Notes: generated by a model from the sequence alone, not told the origin. Positions 22,891 to 33,460 are shown, counted from the first letter of the stretch. The stretch: DNA of 64,000 nt from an uncultured Gemmatimonadales bacterium (GCA_963695555.1 CAVOGR010000002.1:320001-384000); one strand, 5' to 3'. Numbers and translations: made by a program.

Positions 22891-25800
22891 CAGGACGTAC
22901 CTCCTTCTCTACGGCGAAGCTCCCAGTACAACAGCGGCACGACCACCATCGTGAGCAAGGTTGCGACGATGGCGCCGCTGATCAGCGCTACGGCCAGTCC
23001 CTGAAAGATCGGATCGACCACCATGACCAGGCCACCGATCACCACCGCCGCGGCCGTCAAGGCGATCGGCCGGAACCGTACGGCACCGGCCTCCACCACG
23101 GCCTCGGCCAGGGGGCGGCCACGCTCTTCGGCCAGTTGGATGAAATCGACCAGCAGGATCGAGTTTCGAACGATGATGCCGGCGAGCGCGATCATCCCGA
23201 TCATCGAGGTGGCGGTAAAGAACGCCCCGGTCACCGCATGTCCTGGCAGGATCCCCACCAGGGTCAGCGGAATGGGGCCATGATGACCAACGGAATCTTG
23301 AACGACTGGAACCACCCAACCACCAGCACGTAGATCAGGATCAAGACCGCCGCGAAGGCGATCCCAAGATCGCGAAAGACTTCGATGGTGATGTGCCACT
23401 CGCCGTCCCACTTCATCGCCGTCTCATCCAGCTGCTCGGGGAGAATGGCGTTATAGCGCCGGATTTCGGCCCCGGCCACCCGCACCGTATCCAGGGCCCG
23501 GTTCATGTTCAGGATCGCGTAGACCGGTGACTCGACGGTGCCGGCTACATCGCCGGTTACGTAAATCACCGGACGCAGGTTCTTCCGAAAACGTGACGGT
23601 TCGCGCACGGTGGAATCGACGGTGACGAATCGCGCCAGCGGTTGCGGGCCGGAGGCGGTGGCCACCGGGGTGGCCAGCAAGGCCTGCACCGAGGATCGCT
23701 GGGGAAGCGGGAACCTTGCCACGATGGGCACAGGCTCACGAGCCGGCGATTCTCGCACGAGGCCCGCGACCGACCCCGAGAGTGCCAGGGTGAGCGTGTG
23801 GGTCAGTTGCTCCACGCTGGCACCGGCCTGCGCTGCGCGGACCCGGTCCACCGTGAACATCCACCCTGCCTGCGGCGCCTCGAGCGACCAATCGACATCG
23901 ACTACACCGGCGGCGTGCTCGAAGACGTCCTTGACGCGCCGGGCGGCCTCGACGCGGGTGGAGTCATCCGCGGCATAGATCTCAGCAACCAACGTTGAAA
24001 GCACCGGCGGGCCGGGGGGAATCTCCGCAATCTTGGCACTCGCTTGGTAGCGCCGTGCGATGGAGTCGATCCCCGGGCGCACGGCGACCGCAATCTCATG
24101 GCTCTGTCGTTTGCGATCGTTTTTGGGACGCAAGTTCACCTGGAGATCCACGCCGTTCGCACTTTGGCGGAGGAAATAGTGGCGCACCAAGCCGTTGAAG
24201 TTGAAGGGCGCCGCGGTGCCGGCGTACACCTGGGTGTTTTCAACTTCCGGTGTCTCTCCGACGTAGGCCGCCACTTCAGTGCCGAGCGCATTAGCCGTTT
24301 CGAGTGTGGCGCCCTCCGGAAGGTCCAACACCACCTGGAACTCACTCTTGTTATCGAACGGCAGCATCTTGACCTCGACCACCTTGATCGCGAGGAGCCC
24401 CATGCTGAGCACCAGGAGTGTGGCCACGGCGCCGTAGAACAAGTGGCGGCGGCGTGGATCCTCCATGAGCGGTTGCATGATCCGGGCATACCGTTGGCCG
24501 AATTGCGACCGTTCTTCGGGCTCGTGGGCCACATCCGTCTTGGGGTGGGTCACCGGTACGTGGCCGCGCAGGAGGCGCAGCGCCAGATAGGGGGTGATCA
24601 TGAACGCCACGGCGAGCGAGGCCAGCATCGCCGCCGAGGCGCCAATCGGGATGGGACGCATGTACGGCCCCATCAAGCCCGAGACGAAGGCCATCGGGAG
24701 AATCGCGGCGATCACGGTGAAGGTCGCGAGGATGGTCGGATTCCCGACCTCATCGACGCCTTCGACGGCGGCCACCTCCGGGCGTGCGTCCGCCCATCTG
24801 GAGGTGGCGGTAGATGTTCTCGACGACCACGATCGCGTCGTCGACCAGGATGCCGATCGAGAAGATCAGAGCGAACAGCGTGATCCGGTTGAGGGTGTAG
24901 CCCAGGGCGTAGTAGACGAAGAGGGTCAGGGCCAGCGTCACCGGAACCGCCACGAGCACGATGATCGCTTCCCGCCAACCCAGAAAGATGCCGATGAGCA
25001 CGGTGACCGACAGCGTCGCGATCAACAGGTGGAGGATGAGCTCATTGGCCTTCTCGCTCGCCGTTTCCCCGTAGTCGCGGGTCACCTCGAGTCCGACGTC
25101 GGCGGGAATCAACCGAGACCTGGCTGCCTCGACGCGCTCGAGGACTGCATGTGCGATGGCCGTGGCATTGGCGCCCGGTCGCTTGGCGATCGCAAGCGTC
25201 ACGGCATGTTCCACGACACCGTCACGTCCCCGATGAGACACGTAGTGCTCGACTTCGCCGAAGGTGTCGTCGAGTGTGGCCACGTTTCCCAGATAGACCG
25301 GCCCGGCTCCCCGGCTGCTCACCACGACCCGCGCGAGATCCTGGACGCTCCGAATCGGGGCGCCGATTTGCACCCGGAACACGGAATTGCCCGAGGCGAA
25401 CTCGCCGGCCGTCAGGCGCGCGTTGGTGCCGCGAAGCGCCGCTGCCACTTCGCCCGGTGTGATCCCGTTCGATGCCAGACGTGCCGGGTCGAGAATCACG
25501 CGCACGGTGCGCGGTCTGCCGCCAACCACGAAAGTCTCCGCCACGTCCGGCAGGGTCCGGACCTCGTCATCGAGATGGGTGGCAATGAGCCTGAGCTCGT
25601 CGGAGCCGTAGCGTGTCGAGTGGAGGGTCAGCGTGAGGATCGGGACGTCATCGATGCTGTGCGGCTTGACCAGGGGCGGAAGCGCTCCGGGCGGAATCTC
25701 GTCCATGGCCGCGGCGAGCTTTGCGTGGACCTTGCTCACGCTCCGATCCTGATCCTCACCGACCGTGAAGCGCACGGTCACCAGCGTCATGCCATCTCCG

Positions 25801-26060
25801 GCCATTGCGTAGACGTACTCGACGCCGGGAATTTCCCACATCAGCTTTTCGATTGGGCGAGTGAGCAAGTTCTCCACTTCCGATGGACTCGCTCCCGGGA
25901 AGACCGCCATGACGTCGATCATGGGGACCGAGATTTGCGGCTCTTCCTCGCGCGGCGTGCCGAGCAGCGCGAGGGCGCCCACCGCCAAGGACGCCAGCGT
26001 AACCAGTGGAGTCAGCTTCGAACGAAGGAAGGCCTGAGCAATCCTACCCGCGATGCCCAT
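22890..26060 (-). pseudogene. RND efflux permease split by two frameshifts (about 24780 and 23275)
   Basis: Three consecutive ORFs carry PREEEPQI..IGILVDDAIVVVEN, MLPFDNKSE, and [21 protein letters not shown]. Confidence 0.85.
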
Positions 26061-27105: not shown

Positions 27106-28474
27106 TCACTCCTCTAGGGCGGTCAGGCTCGAGATGCTGACCCCGAATGCTTTACGCCGATCGGCTTCGGCAACGATGAGTTGATACTGCACGAGCGACA
27201 GGCCCAACTGCGAACTCGTCTCCGTAGCCTGGGCGTCGAGCAGTTCGACCACCGTGGCGAGCCCGCCTTCGTACTTCCGACTCACGATCCGGTGGGCCTC
27301 CCGGCTCTGTTCCACCGCACGCTCGGCAATGGCCAGTCGGGTGAGCGCCACCTCGACATCGGTTTGGCGGGCTGCCATCTCTACGCTGCGACCGGTGCGT
27401 CGCCGCCTCGGCCATGGCTCGCGCCGAAGCTTCCCGGCCCTTGGCCGCCTGCATGTCGCCGATCTCCGAGGCCCCCGCAAAGGGCGTCCAGACCGCCATG
27501 ACCCCGACGGTCCAGCTCTTCTCGCCGGCGAAGAACCCGTCGGCGTACCAATCGTACCGGGCGAACGAGTTGACCCTCGGCACATAGCGGGACCGGGCTC
27601 GCCACACGTCGCGCCGGGTGGCGTCCCAGGCGTGGGTAGCTGCCGCCACGTCCTGACGTGCCTGAAGCGTTAACGAATCGGGCCGGATCAAGGCGCGGAT
27701 GCGAGTGGGAGAAGGGAGGCTCTCGGGTAGCGTGGCGGCTGCGCTGGCTGGGTCGCCGAGCAACAACGCCAACTCCCGATGCGCGTTGGCGCTCTCTCCT
27801 CGAGTCATGGCTAGTTGCGCGTCGACTTCGCCGGCACGCACCGAGGCGAGCAGTGCATCGGACCGGGTAACCATCCCGTTCGTCACCATCAACTCAGCTT
27901 GTCTGGTATGTTCGTGCGCGGCGCGGGAGGCGGCTTCCAGTGTCTGGACTTGGAACCCCGCCAGGATCGAGCCGAAATATGCGCGCACGACGTCGGCACG
28001 CACCGACTCCCGGGTCCACCGTGCATTCGCGGCACTTGCCGCGGCGGCACTCGAGGCCGCAGCCCGTCCCAGCCACGCATCGGCGTTGAAGAGTGGTTGT
28101 TCCACCACCAGCGCCCCGGCGTACAGGGATTGGGTCGCCGGATGATTCAGGGCGACGGGATCAAACGCCGCTGGCGTCACGGCGCGCTGCCGGAGGATGG
28201 TTCCAAAGGCGCCGAGCGGATCGGTGGTGCGGGTGTAGCCACCTTCGGCACGGAGGGTCGGTAATACCCCCGCAAGGGCCGAGGTCTTGTCTCCGGACCG
28301 GACCTGGGTTTCCCCCGCGGCAATACGGTTGGAATACGCCAGCTGGTCGGCCCGATCCAGCGCCTCGGCCAGCGAAAGGCTCTGGGCGGCCGCACCGGAC
28401 ACGGCACCCACGGCCAGGGCTGCGCCGAGCACTATACCGTAAACCATTGTCTTTATGTGTTTTACGCTTCGCAT
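27106..28474 (-). pseudogene. TolC family outer-membrane protein, frameshifted near 27390
   Basis: Signal peptide and TolC repeats in ORF 27152-28474; C-terminal KYEGGLATVVELLDAQ in a second frame ending at 27106. Confidence 0.8.
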
Positions 28475-29152: not shown

Positions 29153-31066
29153 GTGAGCGCGCTCCTTGGCGCATTCCCGCGATATGGATCGCCATCGCCG
29201 AGTGACGGGGCGCTCAGCCCCGTGCTCGATGCGCTTCGCGTACGAGGCCGCGATCGGGAAGAGCTGCATCGTGAGGACGCGGCATTGCTCGGAGTGCTCC
29301 GCCACGACTGGGAGCTTGCACCGTGGATCTCGGGGAACGTCCTACTCGCCCGGGACCAGGAAGCCGGTGTCGTCGTTGCCGCGGACGCGGCACTCTATTA
29401 CCGCGACGATTTGGTGCACGCCGTGGAGAGAGCGGGTACTCGGATCCGCGGTCGGAGCCCCGCCGAGCTGATCCTTGCCGCATACCTGGCATGGGGCGAT
29501 TCGTGCCTCGAGCGACTCGAGGGTGATTTCGCCTTCATTCTCTGGGACGGGCGCCAGAGGCGGGTGGTGGCTGCCAGAGATTTCGGCGGGAAACGGCCGC
29601 TGTTTCACGCCGAGCTTGGCGGAACGCTCTTTCTCGCCTCCACCATCCCGGCGCTTCTCGCCGCACCGGGCGCGAGCCGGGAACTCGATTGGACGGTGAT
29701 TGCCGAGGCGGCCGCGGCGCTGACCAACTCGCCGGATGAGACGGCCTTTCGCGCCGTCTGCCGCCTCCCTGCCGGATCGACGCTCGTTTACGAGCCAGGC
29801 TCGGCGCCACGAATCCGACAGCATTGGCACCCACCCACCTTCAGCACCTGGGGGGGGCGAGACGCCAGGGAGGCGGCTGCGGAGTTGCGCATCACGCTCG
29901 AGCGCGCCGTCGATGAGCGCCTGGCAGGCGAAGGCGTAACGGCGTGTTTCCTCTCGGGCGGGTACGACTCCCCGGCAGTTTACGCCGCGGGGCGCCACCT
30001 ATTGGCAAACAGCGGAGCGCGGCGTGAACTCCGTCCTATCTCGATGAGTTTTCCGCCCGGCGACTCCGGCCGGGAAGACGAGCTCATCGAGCAGATCGTC
30101 GGACACTGGAACGACGCGACGCGTTGGATCCAGAGCACGGACGTTCCCTTCTGCGAGGATCCGGAGGAGCACGCGCGTCAACGCGCCGAGCCATTCCCGC
30201 ACCTCTTCGAAACCTTCAACCGCGTCGCCACCCGCGCTGCCGTTGGCCAAGGTGCACGGGTTGTGCTGGACGGGAGCGGTGGCGACCAGCTCTTTGCCGT
30301 CGGGGCGAATGTCTTGTCAGATCTGCTGCGTGGCGGGCACTGGCTGCGGTTGGCTTCGGATTGGAAGGCCCTGGGTGGAGGGAGCTGGCGCGACTTCTTC
30401 AAGGTGGCGGTCCAGCCCCGGATGGGACCGAAACTGCTTCGAGCGGCAACCTGGCTCCGCGGCGGCCGCCCGCTGGCCGATGTCGGGTTCGTTCGCGACA
30501 TCCCGCCCTGGTTCTCGAAGACGTTCGTCGAGCGCCACGGCCTTCGTACCCGCGAGCAGGATCGCCAACCGGCCCGCGGCACCATGAGTTGGTCCGCCTA
30601 CGAAGCCTTGTGGTACCTGACCACCCCGGCGTTCCCTCGCATGGCCGAATACGTCGCGAGCTTTGCCTTGGAGGAGGGCGCCGAGTACCGCTCCCCGCTC
30701 CTCGATAGGCGAATCGTTGAACTGGCGGCCACCCGCCCGGCATCGGACCGGCGCCGGGGCACCGAGACCAAGCTACTGCTTCGCCACGCCATGGAAGGAC
30801 TCCTCCCGACACCCGTCCTCGCTGGGCGGCCGCACAAGACCGGGATGCCGGTGGACTACATGCGGGGATCCGCCCGGACCCTCCTAGGCGGGCCGTTGCG
30901 TCCGCTGCTCCGAGATTCAGCCCTGGCAGAGGCCGGGATCGTCGAGCCGGAGGCCTTGCAGAGGGCAGTCGAGCGCTGTGTGGCTGGTCAGGACGACGGG
31001 CAGGCCGTCGGGCTCTACCTGACCCTCCAGGCCGAGCTCTGGGTGCGCCAGCAGATTGGGGGGTGA
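29153..31066 (+). CDS. Asparagine-synthetase-like ATP-dependent macrolactam synthetase (lasso cyclase, C protein)
   Basis: LEGDFAFILWD, ARDFGGKRPL, FLSGGYDS, DGSGGDQLF, RSPLLDRRIVE, KLLLRHAM; lacks the N-terminal catalytic Cys of glutamine-dependent AsnB; adjacent to a lasso-type precursor. Confidence 0.8.
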   Translation: MSALLGAFPRYGSPSPSDGALSPVLDALRVRGRDREELHREDAALLGVLRHDWELAPWISGNVLLARDQEAGVVVAADAALYYRDDLVHAVERAGTRIRGRSPAELILAAYLAWGDSCLERLEGDFAFILWDGRQRRVVAARDFGGKRPLFHAELGGTLFLASTIPALLAAPGASRELDWTVIAEAAAALTNSPDETAFRAVCRLPAGSTLVYEPGSAPRIRQHWHPPTFSTWGGRDAREAAAELRITLERAVDERLAGEGVTACFLSGGYDSPAVYAAGRHLLANSGARRELRPISMSFPPGDSGREDELIEQIVGHWNDATRWIQSTDVPFCEDPEEHARQRAEPFPHLFETFNRVATRAAVGQGARVVLDGSGGDQLFAVGANVLSDLLRGGHWLRLASDWKALGGGSWRDFFKVAVQPRMGPKLLRAATWLRGGRPLADVGFVRDIPPWFSKTFVERHGLRTREQDRQPARGTMSWSAYEALWYLTTPAFPRMAEYVASFALEEGAEYRSPLLDRRIVELAATRPASDRRRGTETKLLLRHAMEGLLPTPVLAGRPHKTGMPVDYMRGSARTLLGGPLRPLLRDSALAEAGIVEPEALQRAVERCVAGQDDGQAVGLYLTLQAELWVRQQIGG

Positions 31067-31153
31067 AGACCCGCGTGGGGAGGGGTGTCCCCGGTTTGGG
31101 ACATCGCCCACCCCGGGTTGCCGCCAGCCGTTAGCCCCCCCCCCAACCCCCCC

Positions 31154-31182
31154 TTGCGGACGGGGCTTTCGTACGGTACAGT
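31154..31182 (+). promoter_or_regulatory. Putative sigma70 promoter of the precursor gene
   Basis: TTGCGG-N17-TACAGT, about 70 nt upstream of the precursor ATG. Confidence 0.5.
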
Positions 31183-31251
31183 TTCTGCAGCTAAGAAAGC
31201 TGTTACGGGGTTGTGGTCGTGTAGTCCGGCCCAATGTCTAAGAGGTGGTGT

Positions 31252-31440
31252 ATGTACGCCAAGCCTGTGTTGGAGCGATTCGGCACATTTCGGGATCTCA
31301 CCCAGATGCCGCCGCCACGAGGGAAGAAGGATCCAGGCGCGGACCTGGCGAGTGCGCTCAACTGTGAGTCCCATGCCGCTCCCGGCTCCCACGCGGCATG
31401 TGGTGGCAGTCCCGGTACCGGCGGCGGACGCACGAGCTGA
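31252..31440 (+). CDS. Lasso-type RiPP precursor peptide (62 aa)
   Basis: GAGGTGG RBS; leader MYAKPVLERFGTFRDLTQ fits YxxPxL...GxxxxxT(-2); core MPPPRGKKDPGADLASALNCESHAAPGSHAACGGSPGTGGGRTS. Confidence 0.85.
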   Translation: MYAKPVLERFGTFRDLTQMPPPRGKKDPGADLASALNCESHAAPGSHAACGGSPGTGGGRTS

Positions 31441-31447
31441 TTCCGCT

Positions 31448-31525
31448 GGGAGGTTCTTGACCTCCCGCCGCACAATTACTGAATTGTGAACCGCCCGCCC
31501 TCAGAGAAATCTCCGAGGGCGGGCG
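31448..31525 (+). terminator. Three tandem hairpins after the precursor (terminator or mRNA stabiliser)
   Basis: GGGAGG-N7-CCTCCC, CACAATT-ACTG-AATTGTG, CGCCCGCCCTC-N12-GAGGGCGGGCG. Confidence 0.6.
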
Positions 31526-31586
31526 TCCCTTTGGGTACAGGCGCCGGCATCGGAATCGCAGCCGCGGGCCCATCAGAACTCGGCTC

Positions 31587-32663
31587 GTGACCCACCCCCG
31601 CGCCCAGAGCACCAATTCCCTCGAACCCCCGTTCGTTCTCATCCGGGCGCTCACCAAGTCCTACCCGATTCACCGCCAATGGCGCGAGATACTGCGGAGC
31701 CCGTTTACCGAACAGTGGACCCCCGCGCTCGAGGGAGTGGACTTAGCCGTTGAGCGTGGCGAGTTCTTCGGCCTCCTGGGGCCCAATGGGGCCGGCAAGA
31801 CCACCTTGTTCAAGGTGCTGTCCACCCTCATCACCCCAGACTCCGGTCAGGCCCAGGTGGACGGCCTCGATGTGGTCCGTGACGCGTCCCAGGTCCGGAG
31901 GATCCTGTCGCCCGTGATCCCGGATGAACGCAGTCTCTTGTGGCGTCTCTCGGCGCGCGAGAACCTGAATCTCTTTGCCGGCCTGTACGGCTACACCGGC
32001 AACGGCCGGGCGGCTCGGGTCAACGATCTCCTGGACATCGTGGGCCTGGAAGAGGCGGGCAACAAGATGGTGGGGCAGTTCTCGTCCGGCATGAAGCAGC
32101 GACTGCTCATCGCGCGGGCGCTCCTCCCCGAGCCGCGGCTGCTGCTGCTCGACGAACCGACCCGAAGTCTCGATCCGGTGTCGGCCGAGCGCTTCCGCAG
32201 GTTCCTCCGCGACGAGATCGGTGGGCGCCAGGGTTGCACGATCCTCCTCGCCACGCACAACGCCGAGGAAGCGCTCGATTTGTGCACTCGTGTGGCCGTG
32301 CTCGATCGGGGGAGGGTCCGGGCGGTTGGGACGCCGGAGGCGCTCGCGCTCCGCGTGGCGGAGCAACGCTTCCGGATCTACACCCGGACGCCCGACGCGC
32401 CGGCGTTCGGGGAGTTGCTCCACCGGGGCCTGGCGCAGAGTGTCAGCATGACGGCCGCGGCTGACGGCCAGTGGTCGGTGGTGGAGGTCGAGATTCCAAA
32501 GGGCAACGAGGGATGTGAAGCCGTTCTTGTCTACCTCGCCCGCCAGGGCGTTACGGTAGCCCGCCTCGAGCGCGTCCGACCCACCCTGGCCCAGGTCATC
32601 GAGCACGTGGTGGCCCAGCATCCGCCGGGCACGGCAGCAGCAGCAGAGGCCCCTCGATCATGA
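31587..32663 (+). CDS. ABC-2 type exporter ATP-binding subunit
   Basis: GPNGAGKT, FSSGMKQRL, LLLLDEPT. Confidence 0.92.
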   Translation: MTHPRAQSTNSLEPPFVLIRALTKSYPIHRQWREILRSPFTEQWTPALEGVDLAVERGEFFGLLGPNGAGKTTLFKVLSTLITPDSGQAQVDGLDVVRDASQVRRILSPVIPDERSLLWRLSARENLNLFAGLYGYTGNGRAARVNDLLDIVGLEEAGNKMVGQFSSGMKQRLLIARALLPEPRLLLLDEPTRSLDPVSAERFRRFLRDEIGGRQGCTILLATHNAEEALDLCTRVAVLDRGRVRAVGTPEALALRVAEQRFRIYTRTPDAPAFGELLHRGLAQSVSMTAAADGQWSVVEVEIPKGNEGCEAVLVYLARQGVTVARLERVRPTLAQVIEHVVAQHPPGTAAAAEAPRS

Positions 32664-33460
32664 GGACGATCCTGGCGTTCCTGCGGGCCAATTGGCTCAC
32701 CGCGACGAGCTATCGGATCGACCTCGTCATCTCGCTCATCTCGCTGGCCGCCGCCGCCGTCCCGCTCTACTTCGTGTCGGGCGCACTGCAGCCCTTGATG
32801 GCGGACTCGATCCGAACCGAGGGCGGGCAGTATTTTGGGTTCGCGCTGGTGGGTATCGTGACGTACAGCTTCCTGGGTGTTGCGGTGAACAGCATCCCCA
32901 CCGGCTTGGGGAAGAGCATTAGCTCGGGCACGATCGAGGCGTTTCTGGTCGCGCCGGCATCCTTGCCTTCGATTCTCGCCGCCTTCGCCTCCTACGATCT
33001 GATATGGACCACCATGCGGGCCGTGGTCTTTCTCGGGGTGGGCGCGGTGCTCGGCGCTCGCTTCGCCCCGGCCGGACTGCCGGCAGCCCTATTCATCCTG
33101 GCTCTGACCGTGCTGGCCTACGTGCCCATCGGCCTCATGGCGGCGGCAATGGTCATGGCATTCCGAACGACGGGGCCGCTTCCTAAGGCGGTGTTCGCAG
33201 CCTCGGCGCTGCTTGGTGGCGTGTACTATCCCACGACCGTCATCCCGTCCTGGATCGAGCTGGTGTCGCGCATCGTGCCCCTCACCTACGGGCTCCGCGC
33301 CATCCGGCGCACGCTGCTCGAAGGATGGTCACTCGGGCAGGTGGGCGGGGACGTATTGACCCTGATCGGGATCAGCGCCGTGCTGTTCGCCGTCGCGATT
33401 CCGTTGTTCCTGAAGGCGCTTGGGACGGCACGCCGCCGCGGGACGCTCGCTCACCCATGA
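32660..33460 (+). CDS. ABC-2 type exporter permease
   Basis: About 6 TM segments, GTIEAFL, GGVYYP, PLTYGLRAIR; overlaps the ATPase stop (ATGA). Confidence 0.88.
   Translation: MRTILAFLRANWLTATSYRIDLVISLISLAAAAVPLYFVSGALQPLMADSIRTEGGQYFGFALVGIVTYSFLGVAVNSIPTGLGKSISSGTIEAFLVAPASLPSILAAFASYDLIWTTMRAVVFLGVGAVLGARFAPAGLPAALFILALTVLAYVPIGLMAAAMVMAFRTTGPLPKAVFAASALLGGVYYPTTVIPSWIELVSRIVPLTYGLRAIRRTLLEGWSLGQVGGDVLTLIGISAVLFAVAIPLFLKALGTARRRGTLAHP

Follow-up and report, generated by a model that had tools for sequence, protein, structure and literature searches.

A Gemmatimonadota family of lasso-type precursors with a C-terminal serine, a possible lysine side-chain ring and maturation genes that look split between two loci

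The 64,000-nucleotide stretch of DNA analysed here (the window) belongs to an uncultured Gemmatimonadales bacterium (GCA_963695555.1, CAVOGR010000002.1:320001-384000) and carries a short open reading frame (ORF) that is confirmed as a lasso-type precursor gene, next to a gene for an asparagine-synthetase-like macrolactam synthetase, a homologue of the lasso cyclase C. The defining feature of lasso peptides is a ring in which the N-terminal amine is joined to an Asp or Glu at position 7–9, and genome-mining scores are built on that rule; the best conserved acceptor candidate of the peptide described here is Asp13 of the predicted core. The proposed reading is that the ORF is a genuine precursor under selection, that it belongs to a Gemmatimonadota-wide lasso-type family with a C-terminal Ser, that it is matured by enzymes encoded at two sites and that its ring closes on Asp13; taken jointly, these parts make a tentative reading, somewhat more apt to fail at some point than to hold throughout.

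The precursor ORF occupies positions 31252–31437 of the plus strand, with the stop codon at 31438–31440, and encodes 62 residues (MYAKPVLERFGTFRDLTQMPPPRGKKDPGADLASALNCESHAAPGSHAACGGSPGTGGGRTS). Residues 2–18 conform to the pattern YxxPxLx3Gx5Tx, and the NCBIfam lasso-leader model NF033521 (lasso_leader_L3) matches residues 8–24 of a 68-aa ORF with 21.9 bits (cut-off 19); a six-frame search of the genome gave 23 bits for the window leader. The start codon is placed at 31252, and not at the upstream ATG 31234, because the leader Tyr is immediately preceded by Met in 25 of 27 precursors of relatives.

In profile searches, 59 of the 401 Gemmatimonadota genomes covered had ORFs with the same 18-aa leader architecture, a tally that takes in the unpublished genome G157, whose sequence was not used further; among 1.84 billion cluster representatives, at least 195 matched at E ≤ 0.001. 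Cores were drawn from the best 150 of these 195 representatives and from the loci L022–L050, L060 and L006; proteins P0012, P0022 and P0149 (longer than 130 aa) and P0032 and P0035 (which failed the leader pattern) were left out before counting, leaving 177 distinct cores, or 184 after the addition of cluster members. Because close relatives of the window peptide made up most of the sequences behind both query profiles, the shares of core types are not representative of the family: 132 of the 177 distinct cores have Asp or Glu at core positions 7–9, 138 end in Ser and 125 contain exactly two Cys. Core position 1 is diverse, with 16 different residues, among which Met occurs in 7 of the 177 cores. 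Two members have named records, both as 'lasso RiPP family leader peptide-containing protein', from Gemmatimonadales and Gemmatimonadaceae. A precursor search of metagenomes yielded the sole locus L061, which was rejected as a chance match inside a DNA-polymerase-III-delta'-like ORF, and a search of genome contigs yielded none. In the literature on lasso peptides and Gemmatimonadota, Lys side-chain macrolactams, ring sizes and N-terminal extensions, judged by titles and abstracts and with thin coverage of subscription journals, neither a description of the family nor a Lys–Asp or N-terminally extended lasso ring was found. One survey counted lasso clusters in 29 marine Gemmatimonadota genomes and, in the part of the text drawn on, describes no peptides (PMC11316326). 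The family is large and apparently uncharacterised.

Predicted cleavage after T17-Q18 gives a core of 44 aa, in the frame and with the sequence that a preliminary description of this DNA had reported. Asp9 is the sole acidic residue at core positions 7–9, the two cysteines are Cys20 and Cys32, the core lacks aromatic residues and has two copies of SHAA, all as described there, and the view of the ORF as a lasso-type precursor with a core unlike that of any characterised lasso peptide holds. The length, presented there as exceptional, is outside the range of 13–33 aa given for known lasso cores (PMC13352647), but it is no outlier in the family, where the median for the 184 cores is 35 aa, the maximum 56 aa and 47 cores have at least 40 aa. 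The SHAA repeat is real but specific to the clade of cores that begin with MPPP, the relatives reading AHAAPGSAAAC or ANAGSGSAAAC. Conservation of the Cys pair was borne out: both Cys are present in all 11 intact variants of the MPPP clade and in P0005, and their spacing of 12 is the commonest value in the family (40 cores). The segment between them, C-E-S-H-A-A-P-G-S-H-A-A-C, is symmetric in Cys and His and could, judging from its composition, bind a metal; its second His is restricted to the MPPP clade and is not kept by the relatives.

The window holds genes for an AcrB-type pump (23264–26060) and an outer-membrane efflux protein (OEP, 27106–28474) that are each split into overlapping ORFs, probably through assembly indels or as pseudogenes, and contigs of public runs were therefore compared with it. 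The contigs came from four runs of four studies, with DNA in X1, X2 and X4 and an RNA library in X9; the best-matching DNA run may be the window's own sample and would then not be independent. Identical contig pieces span 31222–31376 and 31336–31660, and the listed indels among contigs are all intergenic (31074, 31077, 31133, 31135, 31145 and 31240). The preliminary description had noted indels elsewhere in the window, which left the core to be confirmed, and had considered a frameshift hiding a conventional core; the contigs of the four runs contain no insertion or deletion within 31252–31440, and the other two forward frames of 31235–31490 encode no lasso-like core. A 720-nt contig of the RNA library X9 crosses the whole ORF with two substitutions, R5Q (31319 G>A) and a silent one, DNA carry-over being possible. 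Public assemblies contain ten more distinct intact protein variants of the MPPP clade (P0003, P0004 and P0155–P0162), which differ at core positions 5, 14, 15 and 19 and in the Gly-rich tail, and in which the leader, MPPP, GKKDPGAD, both Cys and RTS are unchanged; at residue 5 the clade has R or Q. In the spacer between the cyclase and precursor genes, the long C-runs at 31133–31160 differ by indels of 2–4 nt in contigs of other runs, and the length of the spacer is therefore uncertain or strain-variable.

The evidence for Asp13 comes from a block of residues whose distance from the leader varies. In alignment A2, which comprises the window peptide and seven relatives (8 sequences), precursor residues G29 and D31, i.e., core G11 and D13, are among those invariant beyond the leader, and core Asp9 aligns with Ala in two relatives. 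The subfamily block, G-K-x3-G-x-D-L, starts 0–9 residues past the leader T-x site. There is no extension before it in G384, G276 and G244, the cores of which open with G-K-x-x-x-G-x-D, the canonical Gly1-Asp8 layout; the extension has one residue in G272, two (QQ) in P0005 and five in the MPPP clade. The conserved acceptor of the K-block subfamily spans core positions 7 to 16. Lasso enzymes are reported to be sensitive to a change of one residue in ring size (PMC13352647), and a span of this width is difficult to square with direct closure from the residue after T-x. In P0005, the nearest outgroup, and in the other sisters bearing a two-residue extension (P0008, P0011, P0089 and P0049), Asp occupies core positions 6 and 10 only.

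Counts over the larger set point in the same direction. The motif K.{5}D, in which Lys stands six residues before Asp, occurs in 46 of the 177 cores, with Lys anywhere from core 1 to 10; within these 46 cores, Gly is the residue before Lys in 28 and occupies the position two before Asp in 36, and 29 have Leu after Asp. Of the 45 cores lacking acidic residues at positions 7–9, 25 contain the motif, compared with a mean of 3.3 and a maximum of 8 in shuffled sequences; of the 132 with such a residue, 21 contain it (mean 3.5 and maximum 9 in shuffles). Among the 31 extension-bearing cores (Lys at position 4 or later, the MPPP clade collapsed to one), only six have an acidic residue at 7–9. When the cores were anchored without regard to Lys, at the first Asp from position 7 onwards, extensions of at least two residues were present in 19 of 30 cores with Lys six residues before that Asp and in 7 of 92 with Gly there, three of the seven being GK..GDD forms; the association of Lys with extension has a Fisher p of 2e-9, which overstates independence since the sequences are related. 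In a group defined by the tail motif alone, 18 of 22 cores contain K.{5}D; three of the other four are canonical, unextended x-G-x5-D8 cores, and P0021 is neither. Gln is residue 1 in 16 of the 31 extension-bearing cores and in 6 of the 143 others, which fits an N-terminus that is not used in ring closure. Extension-bearing precursors also occur in full clusters, G310 and G094 having both the cyclase and the leader protease B2 beside the precursor and G331 having B2 within about 2 kb. There is no simple correlation between the extension and a local B2 in these loci: B2 is local in G310, G094 and G331 (Lys at 8) and not local in G384, G276, G244 and G272 (Lys at 2–3) or in the window. A second Thr-x before Lys was considered as a protease site; it suits G094 and G331 (T-T-K and T-G-K) and was rejected for the window and most others.

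These observations can be combined in a proposal for the maturation of the peptide. The PqqD-like RRE protein B1 and the transglutaminase-like B2 would bind the YxxPxL...T-x leader and cut after T17-Q18, as expected from the family, and a kinase would phosphorylate Ser44. The cyclase would adenylate the invariant Asp13, not Asp9, in the block G6-K7-x3-G11-x-D13-L14; the Lys7 side chain is the most likely amine partner, because the block sits at a variable distance behind the cut, and MPPPRG would be left as a free N-terminal tail, while Cys20 and Cys32 may close a loop in the long C-terminal tail. The ring Lys7-Asp13 is favoured because extensions occur almost only with Lys six residues before Asp, and a ring Gly6-Asp13 after extra trimming is ranked second, both on the strength of sequence comparison. 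That there is a whole subfamily with a ring from the Lys side chain, and not the N-terminus, to Asp(+6), with free N-terminal tails of 0–9 residues, seems possible but doubtful; if the C-terminal tail were threaded, an otherwise ordinary lasso cyclase would here produce a lasso with two tails.

Several points weigh against the Lys7-Asp13 ring. To our knowledge, no lasso cyclase uses a Lys side chain. Attack of the peptide N-terminus on the adenylated Asp or Glu is the only route described in the part of PMC13352647 drawn on here. The G235 cyclase, which stands beside a canonical core (IGSAVGSD...), is as similar (47%) to the window cyclase as those beside K-type cores are, so no separate enzyme clade is visible; Thr(-2) of the leader is kept throughout, which argues that the new N-terminus still matters; the profiles favour K-type cores and the sequences are related, so that the counts overstate independence; and the ring sizes compared, 26 atoms for Lys side chain-Asp(i+6) vs 25 for Gly1-Asp8, are our own arithmetic. 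In a rival account, MPPPR would behave as part of the leader and be removed by an extra or shifted cleavage, and the alpha-amine of Gly6 would then attack Asp13, forming a Gly1-Asp8 ring of 8 residues with Lys at ring position 2. This ring has a known size, the unextended relatives G384, G276 and G244 already show G1...D8, Gly precedes Lys in most of the block-bearing cores, as counted above, and the cyclase family also serves canonical x-G-x5-D cores (G2 in 81 of 85 D8 cores); host proteases have, moreover, been proposed to make the leader-core cut of pseudomycoidin without B1/B2 (PMC6993621). The junction between extension and block, however, has no conserved residue or motif, the residue before G-K being highly variable; Lys itself follows N, A, D, T, V, P or S in 17 of the 46 cores and has nothing before it in one; the invariant Lys and the Lys-linked extensions are left without a reason; and the cut would break the Thr(-2) rule of the leader protease (PMC10368454), so that additional trimming appears unlikely. 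The preliminary description had instead proposed a cut after T-Q followed by attack of the Met1 alpha-amine on Asp9, with a 9-residue ring and a 35-residue tail, and had made this depend on conservation of Asp at position 8 or 9 in homologues. It is not conserved, since few extension-bearing homologues keep an acidic residue at 7–9: the position of Asp9 in the block is variable (Ala in 2 of the 8 A2 sequences), the five sisters with Asp at 6 and 10 only lack it, and a Met1-Asp9 ring gives no reason for the strong conservation of K, G, D and L in the block. In its favour are the absence of any other acidic residue at core 7–9, the diversity of position 1 in the family and P0007, which with its 4-residue extension likewise puts the clade's first Asp at core 8; furthermore, MPPP and Asp9 are invariant in all intact clade variants, a point that counts against Asp13 and makes Met1-Asp9 possible for this lineage, although as an account of the peptide it looks distinctly unlikely. 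The new topology or non-threaded macrolactam suggested in that description may still apply, on grounds other than those given there.

Two other explanations dispense with the ring. The peptide could be cut, phosphorylated and perhaps glycosylated on Ser44 by the B1-B2-kinase-nucleotidyltransferase set of contig C12 and exported as a linear product akin to the linear polyphosphorylated peptides of Bacillota, with the adjoining cyclase not acting on it. Cyclase-less pathways with a kinase, an RRE and a nucleotidyltransferase exist for linear phosphopeptides, in which cores of about 45 aa are normal (PMC13381572), and the second gene set of this genome, on contig C12 (see below), has no cyclase. 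However, the cyclase gene lies directly upstream of the precursor in the eight related loci where one was identified (the window, G023, G384, G276, G244, G272, G235 and G094) and divergently adjacent to it in G310, and it is under purifying selection: the ratio of nonsynonymous to synonymous substitution rates (dN/dS) against G023 is 0.22 over 508 codons, compared with 0.25 for Hsp15, 0.06 for ThiC and 0.34 for the ABC transporter ATPase. The K/G/D/L block also points to structural constraint, and the leader has no motif of the linear class, whose protease is of the signal-peptidase type, which was not searched for here; a linear product is therefore given little credence. The locus could also be a decaying relic that has lost B1 and the kinase, with an insertion at the junction that ruined processing, and with no mature product. 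Three facts speak for decay, the first two also against the proposed reading: in G153, of the same genus, most of the cyclase and the leader are lost, only cyclase residues 1–128 remaining, fused to the last 27 core codons, and neither B2 nor a kinase turned up in its genome (94% complete); in G023, indels of -1, -3 and -2 scramble the Cys region of the core, and the cyclase is frameshifted or split; and B1 and the kinase, present in the relatives' clusters, are missing at the locus. On the other side stand the 11 distinct intact variants, whose changes spare leader and block as well as both Cys and RTS, the dN/dS of the cyclase and the RNA-library contig across the ORF, with its possible DNA carry-over; G023 and the window also split other genes (TonB receptor, AcrB and OEP), which fits assembly indels, and decay has at best a slender chance of being the explanation.

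The Lys7-Asp13 proposal presupposes enzymes that the locus does not encode. The genome assembly (3.57 Mb, 14 contigs, 87% complete) contains neither B1 nor B2 in the window cluster, these being available only in trans; no remnants of B1, B2 or a kinase were found at the locus, where Hsp15 abuts the cyclase and ThiC forms the other flank, and the locus lacks a kinase and a nucleotidyltransferase. The best NCBIfam model for the cyclase is lass_lactam_cya (221 bits, under the 525-bit cut-off); the SGGxDS motif is retained, and the protein is 44–47% identical to cyclases directly upstream of related precursors (G384, G244, G272 and G235), compared with 28% identity to the genome's own cyclase on contig C5. 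Cyclase orthologues adjoin related precursors in eight further loci (G023, G384, G276, G244, G272, G235, G310 and G094), and the same gene order recurs in G384, G244 and G235. The clusters of relatives are organised as (B1)-C-A-kinase-ABC-ABC2, sometimes with a nucleotidyltransferase, where A is the precursor. Elsewhere in the genome, B2 matches lie on C5 and C12 and PqqD-type B1 matches on C5, C1 and C12. Contig C12 unites B1-B2, a 382-aa kinase ORF and NTP_transf_5 (C12:75258-76013) in one cassette, in which no precursor and no cyclase were found; the 382-aa ORF is the genome's best homologue of the relatives' in-cluster kinase (C12:74218-75144, 41% identity, E 1.7e-66), and the relatives' post-precursor ORF matches the C5 kinase less closely (E 5e-12 to 3e-13), this paralogue reaching 27.5 bits with Pfam Hpr_kinase_C, under the cut-off of 33.3. 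G023, of the same genus, shows the same split with only one B1 and one B2 match, and its kinase, 93% identical, directly follows this sole B1/B2 pair. Since the best homologue of the in-cluster kinase is on C12 and the window cyclase is nearer to those of relatives than to that of C5, the window (C, A and exporter) and C12 (B1, B2, kinase and nucleotidyltransferase) look, by sequence, like two halves of one ancestral cluster; against this, C12 could be a self-standing, cyclase-less cassette for linear phosphopeptides, which lowers confidence in the pairing.

The nearest known systems are the phosphorylated lasso peptides of the paeninodin/pseudomycoidin type of Bacillota. Shared features are the YxxPxL...T-x leader, the Asn-synthetase-like cyclase, the split B1/B2, an ABC exporter, the C-terminal Ser (the core ends with RTS), and an HPr-kinase-like kinase and a PF14907 nucleotidyltransferase, here on C12 and not at the locus. 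Lasso precursors can be phosphorylated on their C-terminal Ser by homologues of HPr kinase (PMC8498205); pseudomycoidin has been proposed to be made independently of B proteins and to carry a bulky C-terminal phospho-hexose that locks the thread (PMC6993621), and a lock of this kind would explain the missing aromatic plug residues of the window core. Unlike the paeninodin type, the genes are at two loci, the exporter is of the ABC-2 type (DrrAB-like), the tail has two Cys, the core is 44 aa long, beyond the range quoted above for known cores, and the conserved acceptor Asp lies 13 residues past the predicted cut, behind an invariant Lys. In class IV lassos (pandonodin, LP2006) the disulfide is formed within the tail, as one between Cys20 and Cys32 would be, and both Cys of the window core would lie C-terminal to the putative ring, behind Asp13; pandonodin, a long example, has 33 aa, however, and the 13-residue Cys-Cys segment and the non-canonical position of the ring also differ (PMC13352647). 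Clusters without B genes, such as the minimal pseudomycoidin system and that of Stanieria cyanosphaera (PMC6993621), resemble the locus in having cyclase and precursor without B genes, but here B1/B2 sit elsewhere in the genome, beside an orthologous kinase, which makes processing in trans more likely than B-independence. Linear polyphosphorylated peptides (LPP; lppA-K-B-S-D-N, Popov et al. 2026, PMC13381572) are comparable to the cyclase-less C12 cassette; their clusters have a signal-peptidase-type leader protease, LppS, no cyclase, phosphorylation of Ser3 and the leader YxxPxVLxHQxIxFETxxS. In the window, by contrast, a cyclase is adjacent, the B2 protease of the genome is of the transglutaminase type, the leader has no HQxIxFET and the conserved Ser is C-terminal; the window peptide is not regarded as an LPP, because the cyclase adjoins and the leader differs. 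In lariocidin a second bond is made through a Lys side chain, although its primary ring, unlike the proposed Lys7 ring, is still closed from the N-terminus. This second isopeptide bond gives a figure-of-eight (PMC13352647), so extra isopeptide links do occur in lasso scaffolds. On the sequence evidence, the window peptide would be a variant of the lasso kind and not a proven lasso peptide, with no B genes in the cluster, no conserved acceptor at 7–9 and a core length outside the known range.

Table 1. Features of the precursor locus in the window (positions counted from its first letter).
Feature	Position	Strand	Basis
Asn-synthetase-like macrolactam synthetase, lasso cyclase C homologue, 637 aa	29153..31066	+	Pfam Asn_synthase 1.1e-29, GATase_7 1e-20
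Shine-Dalgarno-like AGAGGTGG	31241..31248	+	purine-rich, 3 nt ahead of ATG 31252, read from sequence
Leader peptide, 18 aa, end T17-Q18	31252..31305	+	NCBIfam NF033521 match
N-terminal extension MPPPR (core 1-5), lineage-specific	31306..31320	+	comparison with relatives
Block GKKDPGADL (core G6, K7, G11, D13, L14), probable ring region	31321..31347	+	conservation, shuffle enrichment
Cys20-Cys32 segment, possible tail disulfide loop	31363..31401	+	disulfide inferred
C-terminal R-T-S and stop; Ser44 candidate phosphorylation site	31429..31440	+	core end
Three stem-loops, 3' of stop	31448..31525 (31448-31466, 31471-31488, 31492-31525)	+	RNA fold
ABC (ATP-binding cassette) transporter ATPase, DrrA-like	31587..32663	+	Pfam ABC_tran 1.2e-30; NCBIfam drrA subfamily 248 bits, under cut-off
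ABC-2 type permease	32660..33460	+	Pfam ABC2_membrane 6.5e-15

The gap of 146 nt between the precursor and the ATPase gene is filled with hairpins (Table 1). The fold of 31438–31545 has -55 kcal/mol (z -5.5), and none of 200 shuffles is equally stable; the three stem-loops are a possible attenuator or terminator, which the consensus terminator scan missed because the T-tail is weak. That scan found one terminator-like site on the minus strand within the ORF, at chance level (1 vs a shuffle mean of 0.6), and the promoter scan found no sigma-70-like site. The only Rfam match over 30900–31700 was to a microRNA family (25 bits vs a 75-bit cut-off) and was taken as chance, and the overlapping ORFs 31015–31473 (minus strand) and 31085–31489 (plus strand) have no Pfam match.

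The genome and its relatives contain several other loci of note. On C12, at about 71860–76280 (L019:4859-9284), a radical-SAM gene is divergent from the B1-B2-kinase-nucleotidyltransferase cassette. Contig C5 (~348250–355100, L018:5249-12114) has a complete paeninodin-like set of an HPr-kinase-like gene, B1, B2, a 666-aa cyclase, an ABC exporter and NTP_transf_5, in which motif scans found no precursor ORF. About 100 kb from it, at C5:245704-245814 (L006:1489-1611), a second precursor, whose leader is of the same type (24 bits, over the cut-off), stands alone between DUF72-like and leucyl-aminopeptidase-like genes; its 20-aa core has two Cys, an RTS end and no acidic residue at 7–9. On the minus strand of C1 (L020:3302-9389), a 43-aa ORF with a YxxP leader and a WWG end is followed by PqqD and an HPr-kinase-like gene, and then by a fatty-acid-hydroxylase-like gene, an Asn synthase with an N-terminal Cys, and DUF455. 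In G153, the locus L060 (G153:C5:34712-35631), near a contig end, comprises three tandem precursors with the same leader, short two-Cys cores and RTS or RCS ends. In G384, a serpin-family gene (L052:12709-13965) directly follows the exporter genes of the related cluster.

The block at a variable distance from the leader leads to three possible outcomes, each of which would be new for lasso biosynthesis: another nucleophile, an unrecognised second trimming step, or a cyclase that tolerates very different ring sizes. If the gene set is indeed split, a peptide pathway divided between two chromosomal sites would escape cluster-based mining.

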